Assembly (NCBI GenBank): GCA_964016885.1
Contig: OZ024762.1
Coordinates: 2,480,001-2,544,000 of the forward strand
Origin: Eledone cirrhosa
Lineage: Eukaryota
DNA: 64,000 bases
Reading direction: 5' to 3'
Both the position numbers and the translations under genes were made by a program. Shown in pieces: positions 6,001 through 16,030 of the stretch (position 1 is its first letter; each line of letters begins with the position of its first letter). The notes beneath the pieces were generated by a model. The model had not been told where the DNA came from. It worked only from the letters and a program-made list of their open reading frames with translations, and made no database searches.

Positions 6001-7481
6001 GTTTCAAGCTTGTTAGCTATCATCAGCACCGTTTACCCATCTGCCAGATAGTTGAACGTTCGAAAGTATATACTTTCCTTATGAAAATTAACGGCTGAGC
6101 AGCCTAATTTGCATATTGAGTGAGTTAAATCGGTCAGGCATACCGAAAACGATAAATTGAAACAAAATGAAAACGAAATTTCATTTCTCACTCTTAGTAT
6201 GGCACTTACTTAAATGTAAGTATGCATGTATACGTACATACATATATGTATACAGACGTACAGTAGCATGCACATATATATATATATATACATATATATA
6301 TACATATGCATACAGGTACACATACATATATGCACGTATCAGTTTAGCGGCGCTAACGTCGCTTTGTTCGTTTGTAAACAAACTGAACAGCCTGAATTTA
6401 TGCCATACGGTGTTAAGGCAACCACGTCACCTTTTTGTTCAACACTGACACAGGAACGATGTACTAGTTTCAAGCTTGTTAGCTATCATCAGCACCGTTT
6501 ACCCATCTGCCAGATAGTTGAACGTTCGAAAGTATATACTTTCCTTATGAAAATTAACGGCTGAGCAGCCTAATTTGCATATTGAGTGAGTTAAATCGGT
6601 CAGGCATACCGAAAACGATAAATTGAAACAAAATGAAAACGAAATTTCATTTCTCACTCTTAGTATGGCACTTACTTAAATGTAAGTATGCATGTATACG
6701 TACATACATATATGTATACAGACGTACAGTAGCATGCACATATATATATATATATACATATATATATACATATGCATACAGGTACACATACATATATGCA
6801 CGTATCAGTTTAGCGGCGCTAACGTCGCTTTGTTCGTTTGTAAACAAACTGAACAGCCTGAATTTATGCCATACGGTGTTAAGGCAACCACGTCACCTTT
6901 TTGTTCAACACTGACACAGGAACGATGTACTAGTTTCAAGCTTGTTAGCTATCATCAGCACCGTTTACCCATCTGCCAGATAGTTGAACGTTCGAAAGTA
7001 TATACTTTCCTTATGAAAATTAACGGCTGAGCAGCCTAATTTGCATATTGAGTGAGTTAAATCGGTCAGGCATACCGAAAACGATAAATTGAAACAAAAT
7101 GAAAACGAAATTTCATTTCTCACTCTTAGTATGGCACTTACTTAAATGTAAGTATGCATGTATACGTACATACATATATGTATACAGACGTACAGTAGCA
7201 TGCACATATATATATATATATACATATATATATACATATGCATACAGGTACACATACATATATGCACGTATCAGTTTAGCGGCGCTAACGTCGCTTTGTT
7301 CGTTTGTAAACAAACTGAACAGCCTGAATTTATGCCATACGGTGTTAAGGCAACCACGTCACCTTTTTGTTCAACACTGACACAGGAACGATGTACTAGT
7401 TTCAAGCTTGTTAGCTATCATCAGCACCGTTTACCCATCTGCCAGATAGTTGAACGTTCGAAAGTATATACTTTCCTTATG

Positions 7482-7484
<3 letters not shown>
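1..7484 (-). repeat. 466-bp tandem array, left arm (~16 units, ribozyme sense on - strand); continues off the left edge
   Basis: Exact 466-bp periodicity; identical ORF triplets recur every 466 bp (109, 575, 1041...7099). Confidence 0.98.
397..441 (-). ncRNA. Type I hammerhead ribozyme, first of 16 minus-strand copies (397+466k, last 7387-7431)
   Basis: Reverse complement reads AACGGUG-CUGAUGA-U-AGCU-AACA-AGCU-U-GAAA-CUAG-UA^-CAUCGUU: stem I AACGGUG/CAUCGUU, stem II AGCU/AGCU, palindromic stem III ACUAGU, GUA cleavage triplet. Confidence 0.88.

Positions 7485-16030
<8,546 letters not shown>

Follow-up and report, generated by a model that had tools for sequence, protein, structure and literature searches.

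Inverted retrozyme arrays with two probable start sites, fixed and paired, in the genome of Eledone cirrhosa

An insertion of 16,929 bp in the genome of Eledone cirrhosa, composed of 36 identical, hammerhead-bearing 466-bp repeats in a mirror-image arrangement, is a real, single and very recent retrozyme insertion into a TA microsatellite. It was studied in a window, the whole 64,000-nt stretch of contig OZ024762.1 that was analysed (positions 2,480,001 to 2,544,000), and in copies of the same family elsewhere in the assembly. Inversion is the norm of this family: two priming positions are fixed, lie 62 nt apart, and one of them is used per arm. The array likely originated in a single event (probability about 0.7), in which a borrowed Penelope-like enzyme with reverse transcriptase (RT) and GIY-YIG would have primed on both target strands and copied one, probably circular RNA. 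With hundreds of insertions that can be read, this young family allows twin priming to be told apart from self-priming and points to closed-loop templates, and two exact start positions and a candidate enzyme can now be named. It also suggests that perfect palindromes of 17-20 kb can arise in one step within introns.

The array, its unit and its host gene

Both arms are tandem arrays with a period of 466 bp, 100% identical and in opposite orientations (Table 1); the TA tracts are also identical across all 36 units. With the unit numbered from window position 7482, the left arm extends outward to unit position 283 (the long start), where it adjoins about 24 bp of (TA)n in the flank fetched beyond the window, and inward to 349. 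The inner end of the right arm is unit position 1 and its outer end 221 (the short start). The arms meet head-to-head in TTATG-AAA-GGTGACG, and a 30-mer spanning this junction occurs only once in the 3.0-Gb assembly. (TA)n is found at both outer ends of the insertion; since both flanks are TA tracts, a target-site duplication is unreadable at the array.

An earlier note on the window had described an array that flips at a common AAA, mirrors about x+y=14848 around a 115-bp spacer (7367-7481), carries ribozymes of divergent sense and TA tracts of matching length, and forms a palindrome of more than 14.8 kb. Each of these points was borne out. AAA at 7482-7484 belongs to both arms with an overlap of 3, and the mirror holds for every base from 1 to 7366 and fails at the next inward pair. 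Because the units are identical, the mirror is also valid at 15314 and at other registers 466 apart. The hammerhead motifs face outward, with 19 copies in the left arm (minus strand, innermost at 7387-7431) and 17 in the right arm (plus strand, from 7883). The left flank, where the note had suggested looking for a TA tract, contains the beginning of the left arm at -1304 with (TA)n beyond it; with this flank added, each arm of the perfect palindrome measures 8,143 bp, and the whole reaches about 16.4 kb.

Table 1. Features of the array and its surroundings (window positions unless a contig is given)
Feature	Position	Strand	Remarks
Left arm	-1304 (G000:C23:2478696) to 7484	-	18.9 units, 8,789 bp
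Right arm	7482..15624	+	17.5 identical units, 8,143 bp
Microhomology AAA	7482..7484	.	common to both arms, overlap 3
Unmirrored spacer	7367..7481	.	115 bp, innermost register; part of left arm, one hammerhead motif
Reference unit, 466 bp	7482..7947	+	GC about 0.36
62-nt tail bounded by the two inferred starts of reverse transcription (unit 222-283)	7703..7764	+	
Innermost left-arm type I hammerhead motif	7387..7431	-	predicted cut 7394/7393
First right-arm hammerhead motif	7883..7927	+	predicted cut 7920/7921
Right-end host microsatellite, (TA)n-rich	15625..15826	.	insertion target
Likely host coding exon, upstream of the array-holding intron	16053..16162	-	splice signals, frame
Next in-phase exon	G000:C23:2478565-2478654	- (same strand)	splice signals, frame

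The unit comprises a TA-rich hairpin region (96-221), the 62-nt tail (222-283) and a hammerhead (402-446), and its folding has a z of -9.6 relative to shuffles. MicroRNA matches to the TA hairpin in Rfam were below the cut-off and were rejected. A type I hammerhead motif is present in every unit, its core, stems and stem III being read from the sequence: a 7-bp stem I, CUGAUGA, a 4-bp stem II, GAAA and a 2-bp palindromic stem III, with the predicted cut at unit position 439/440. At the Rfam gathering score the unit had no hit; below it there was only a weak Hammerhead_HH9 match (E 0.16, 18.5 bits vs a cut-off of 52), in the outward-facing orientations given above. U-U flanks stem II where a canonical type I hammerhead has G10.1-C11.1. 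This pair is called highly conserved in PMC4209133, which also reports low activity for motifs with a non-standard stem II base. Among 61 distinct variants from the fetched loci, changes cluster at N7, at position 402, in loop II and in a single wobble pair of stem I that shows a double change; such clustering is as expected with the fold maintained. The 40-nt ribozyme core has 10,122 exact matches genome-wide, so that the family is dispersed and high-copy. Tandem, putatively non-coding, low in GC and without LTR organisation, it fits a non-LTR retrozyme in its sequence features. A search of sequencing runs listed no RNA run as containing the unit sequence.

The array likely sits inside an intron of a minus-strand gene, as judged from the two in-phase exons in Table 1. 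These exons have no Pfam match; an atlas search gave a weak cytochrome b561 hit (0.82), which is a lead only, and the exons may resemble ferric-chelate reductase. The left arm's 19 ribozymes are sense to the host transcript. The two arms could pair as a 16-kb hairpin, and this long hairpin together with the 19 sense ribozymes would likely perturb the host transcript. A 72-bp tandem repeat flanks the array on both sides (window 25800-26018 and 27943-28844; L001:7140-8220).

Paired starts and common templates across the family

Family copies were located by exact sequence patterns; the 283 end followed by TA has 850 exact matches, and the 221 end has 461. The sample consisted of the first-listed 83 of the 850 283-end loci; they all lie on contig C1, and young copies are over-represented among them. 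An inverted partner arm was present at 66 of the 83 loci, while 17 were without a partner by script, a few of which conceal very short ones. Inversion, described earlier at a single array, is thus a family-wide rule and not an artefact. The outer ends of the partners fell at 214-225 in 58 of 63 cases by script and in 62 of 63 after inspection, the remaining partner arm being interrupted by other sequence; among these 63 visible partner ends, no 283 end was paired with a second 283 end. Short-start ends adjoin TA although the sample was not selected for TA. Reciprocally, the first 30 loci taken by their 221 end gave nine partner ends, all at 279-283; eight of the others were without a partner, and 13 leave the fetched stretch or are unresolved. 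L172-L181 were omitted from this count, since they had been chosen because both ends were already listed. Orientation switches, counted by eye from listed coordinates only, were divergent in 27 of 28 cases (14, 4 and 9 in three unbiased hit lists), and the sole convergent pair is separated by 1,249 bp of other DNA. Only 2 of 51 long arms ended near 221, vs 5 expected. At L110, there is an older tail of the 283 type 50 bp farther out.

It is highly probable that the arms result from twin priming at these two fixed sites on one template. The arms are concordant for a 6-bp dimorphism at all 38 loci that cover it (21 without the six bases, 17 with them); by simple arithmetic, about half would be discordant if the arms were drawn independently from the family. 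A single expressed source locus could be an alternative cause of this concordance. Variants are fixed in both arms at 32 of 66 loci, and at none are they fixed in one arm only. Furthermore, among the 64 at-risk arms with a long start, nine break off at the second start, after 55-67 nt, vs 1.0 expected (p = 6e-7). No stop at the second start was found on later laps; an early stop that is absent later points to collision on one molecule.

The joins between inner ends were clean in 50 of 66 cases, and 44 of these 50 had microhomology of at least 1 nt vs 46% expected (p = 7e-10). The other 16 joins have inserted bases, some of which copy adjacent sequence. The inner ends may be joined by end joining during host repair. 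The single insertion event, the one template for both arms and the microhomology join that had been proposed for the array are therefore supported by the family-wide sample of loci. At L107, the inversion junction contains a 69-bp insert in which a 12-mer of the neighbouring arm end is repeated about six times, a pattern that suggests repeated re-priming during joining.

Relation to Penelope-like elements and other known systems

The earlier note had compared the array with twin-primed insertions of non-LTR elements. Priming on both target strands was upheld, but the geometry is that of Penelope-like elements and not of L1. As in L1 twin priming (PMC2837659), the other target strand is primed at an internal site of one and the same RNA, the 3' ends face outward, and two cDNAs are joined at an internal junction. 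Unlike in L1, the two start positions are both fixed and internal, a poly(A) tail is missing, the arms overlap in sequence many times over, and RT plus GIY-YIG is the likely enzyme. Second priming near the stop of the first cDNA, which is characteristic of L1, was found for tail-only arms alone, so that the insertions are not of the L1 type. What was found instead, an inverted copy in head-to-head position, a tail at only one of the ends and a (TA)n microsatellite as target, agrees with Penelope-like elements. The endonuclease-containing Neptune and Naiad elements (PMC8557442, PMC3846280) likewise have head-to-head inverted, 5'-truncated copies, partial tandems, a one-end-only tail, (TA)n targeting and an unreadable target duplication. 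Their tail is 30-40 nt and their arms span about one unit, whereas here the tail is 62 nt, the arms reach up to 19 units, and there is no ORF. The mechanism of Penelope inverted and tandem copies is described as undefined (PMC8557442), or self-priming is proposed (PMC3846280).

Biochemical data are available for PAc, the Poseidon element of the green anole (PMC11167929). In vitro, both strands of an AT-rich target were cut and extended, two internal start sites bounded the tail, and uncut RNA was the main substrate. The start sites of PAc did not differ between the strands, whereas here there is almost always one start per arm; inverted insertions and circular templates are not dealt with in the portion of that study available. 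Metazoan non-LTR retrozymes (PMC7229834; bioRxiv 10.64898/2026.07.22.740005) are quoted with units of 150-450 bp, and the 466-bp unit is slightly above this range. Circular RNA was shown in the species of these studies. The word "inverted" is absent from the main text of PMC7229834, and no head-to-head arrays, fixed paired ends or tail were seen in the portion of bioRxiv 10.64898/2026.07.22.740005 available to us. In the literature searched, with supplements and most subscription papers outside it, no statement of strict paired starts together with one-template evidence was found. Retrozymes, Penelope inverted copies and tails, and double internal priming in vitro were already known; the strict pairing of two fixed starts and the signs of closed loops appear to be the new part.

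Mobilisation of the retrozyme by a Penelope-type enzyme appears very likely. The genome has many GIY-YIG hits, and one family has RT, GIY-YIG and a CX5CXXC linker in a single open frame of 938 codons, its RT match being slightly below the Pfam cut-off. By the description in PMC8557442, this family may be classed as Neptune-like. Two end positions against (TA)n, separated by 62 nt, occur in this element, and its inverted copies have one short and one long end in 14 of 14 cases with both ends visible (5/5, then 9/9). Young copies are up to 99.7% alike. The element and the retrozyme tail have only a 12-nt AT-rich word in common, which makes the element a candidate and not a proven partner, and no hammerhead core was seen near its repeat. 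That this particular family supplies the mobilising enzyme is plausible and somewhat favoured.

Several further observations concern Penelope elements and their neighbours. In several copies of the Neptune-like element (L265, L268, L270, L271, L274 and L277), a 400-codon first frame overlaps the second by about 88 nt, which may represent two ORFs or a conserved -1 frameshift; the rule described for such elements is a single ORF. Retrozyme-like copies lying beside GIY-YIG hits at L212 and L232, considered as the element's own repeat, proved to be merely TA-tract neighbours. At L184 (G000:C1:106.12 Mb), about 24 bp of TA separate a retrozyme short-start arm from a long-end arm of the autonomous element in head-to-head arrangement, as nested insertions or a chimera of two RNAs would produce. 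A second Penelope family, with a hammerhead, has a tail of seemingly about 50 nt, roughly read from one inverted copy. In the window, a 5'-truncated terminal repeat of the Neptune-like candidate lies at 48176-48387 with its long end in a TA tract. Small head-to-head inserts of different families occur near TA tracts at 39520-39830 and 43120-43380 and contain divergent pairs of hammerhead-like motifs (39624-/39731+ and 43241-/43248+); further hammerhead-like motifs are at 46066+ and 46711-.

Proposed mechanism, template form and rival explanations

In the proposed mechanism, a unit would be transcribed, cut by its hammerhead and ligated to a 466-nt circle. The enzyme, plausibly a dimer, would then nick both strands of a (TA)n tract, as suggested by the ends and by the published PAc biochemistry. 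Reverse transcription would start at unit position 283 on one strand and at about 221 on the other, a step visible as a pattern in the family. Both enzymes would circle the template, for 18.9 and 17.5 laps in the present array, and stop independently. The inner ends would finally be united through short homology, 3 bp here and sometimes with inserted bases, which is again a pattern of the joins. The general form of this proposal, in which obligate paired priming of the Penelope type places two RTs, one per target strand, 62 nt apart on one circular RNA and carries them by strand displacement through up to tens of laps, is slightly favoured over its negation. If true, obligate paired priming alone would yield, in one step, the tail, pseudo-LTRs, inverted copies and 17-20 kb retrozyme "satellite" arrays. 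The two-start cassette would then turn any small RNA loop that carries it into a mobile array, even a loop without a ribozyme such as that of L278.

Circular templates and rolling-circle copying of retrozyme circles are a proposal in PMC4209133 and PMC7229834. In the sampled loci, arm ends coincide with the predicted cut in 3 of 149 cases vs 3.5 expected, across 256 crossings; the absence of an end pile-up indicates that the templates were continuous there. Insertions tend to be clonal, each for its own variant. At L124, five of five consecutive units have lost 7 nt, the last 7 nt of the cut monomer, and this deletion is private: none of the 28 deletion hits in the genome places it at a second locus. 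The sequence is most simply read as the copy of a circle that had been trimmed and then ligated. At L278 (1555-2149; G000:C3:292.52 Mb), a mini-array of a 165-bp piece of the autonomous Penelope element has 3.3 copies plus an inverted arm, with one long and one short end. Its loop joins the Penelope tail region to the ORF start; the 165-nt join is present a single time in one arm and three times in the opposite arm, and is unique to this locus in the genome. The locus-private joins of L124 and L278, two loci other than the 16.9-kb array, favour circular templates. The L278 array has the appearance of a newly arising non-autonomous element without a ribozyme.

The same twin priming could also have used a long uncut linear transcript (at least 19 units) of a homogeneous array, or a multimeric circle. 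At L094, an ordered mix of units is common to the arms, the inner-arm order matching the other arm at an offset of one or four units, while two unit types alternate at L039 and L131. These mixes indicate that templates are not always monomer circles and that dimers or longer forms occur; the second start may then be situated in a different unit. The TA tract of the array's unit has 1,108 exact occurrences, so that a long homogeneous linear donor may exist; long arrays do exist (L163, with arms of 12.3 kb and 8.0 kb), the ribozyme may cut poorly given its non-standard stem II base (in the light of PMC4209133), and uncut RNA mainly served PAc in vitro (PMC11167929). Against a long linear template, many variants each form homogeneous multi-unit arrays, which needs a step from monomer to multimer. 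The private joins of L124 and L278 are repeated without a donor in the assembly, and no copy of a second inversion junction was seen in any of the 66 inverted loci, a few of which carry odd extra pieces, the array's own junction being unique. We therefore consider a long or multimeric template unlikely, though of some weight, and the template of the 16.9-kb array was probably a monomer circle.

Other explanations address the second arm itself. Self-priming, in which one cDNA folds back and the second arm is a DNA copy of the first, accounts for identical variants in both arms and agrees with the similar arm lengths of the 16.9-kb array and with a few junctions that lie within internal palindromes (L042, L050, L121). 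It is largely refuted by the lengths of the arms across the family, which show no correlation (rho 0.07, n = 63): in 28 of 66 loci the short-start arm is the longer one, and in 33 of 66 the long-start arm has an excess greater than the tail length. Uncorrelated lengths with either arm longer indicate that one arm is not copied from the other. Spacer sizes also range over the whole unit, and single-arm insertions begin at either start site, leaving self-priming very improbable. A short insertion later expanded by unequal crossover or slippage, and inverted by a rearrangement at the DNA level, would agree with the local satellite-like amplification of retrozymes favoured in bioRxiv 10.64898/2026.07.22.740005, and the recurrent variants of L094 could be gene conversion. 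It is hard to reconcile with 36 units that are identical down to their TA tracts, with older arrays that bear unit-private mutations and no gradient, and with divergent switches (27 to 1) and fixed paired ends unlike those of random rearrangement; this history, too, is scarcely probable. An assembly or fold-back read artefact, at the junction or in the array length, could be suspected from the perfect identity over 16 kb and from four runs (two samples, one study) in which no contig bridged the junction, the contigs being fragmented and uninformative for a 10,000-copy repeat. A fold-back chimera is, however, made less likely by the flanks, which differ from each other and carry exons in phase on a single strand. 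Moreover, the arms end at different registers (283 and 221) that obey the family rule, the same architecture is found in diverged old copies, and an equally large array exists elsewhere; the chance of an artefact is thus very small.

The larger inverted array at L163 and L168-L169 (G000:C1:292.769-292.789 Mb; 12.3 kb + 8.0 kb) has scattered TA-length changes, which indicate that it is slightly older than the 16.9-kb array. At L131, 27 extra A lie between two units at unit position 465, possibly through a jump onto a polyadenylated RNA.
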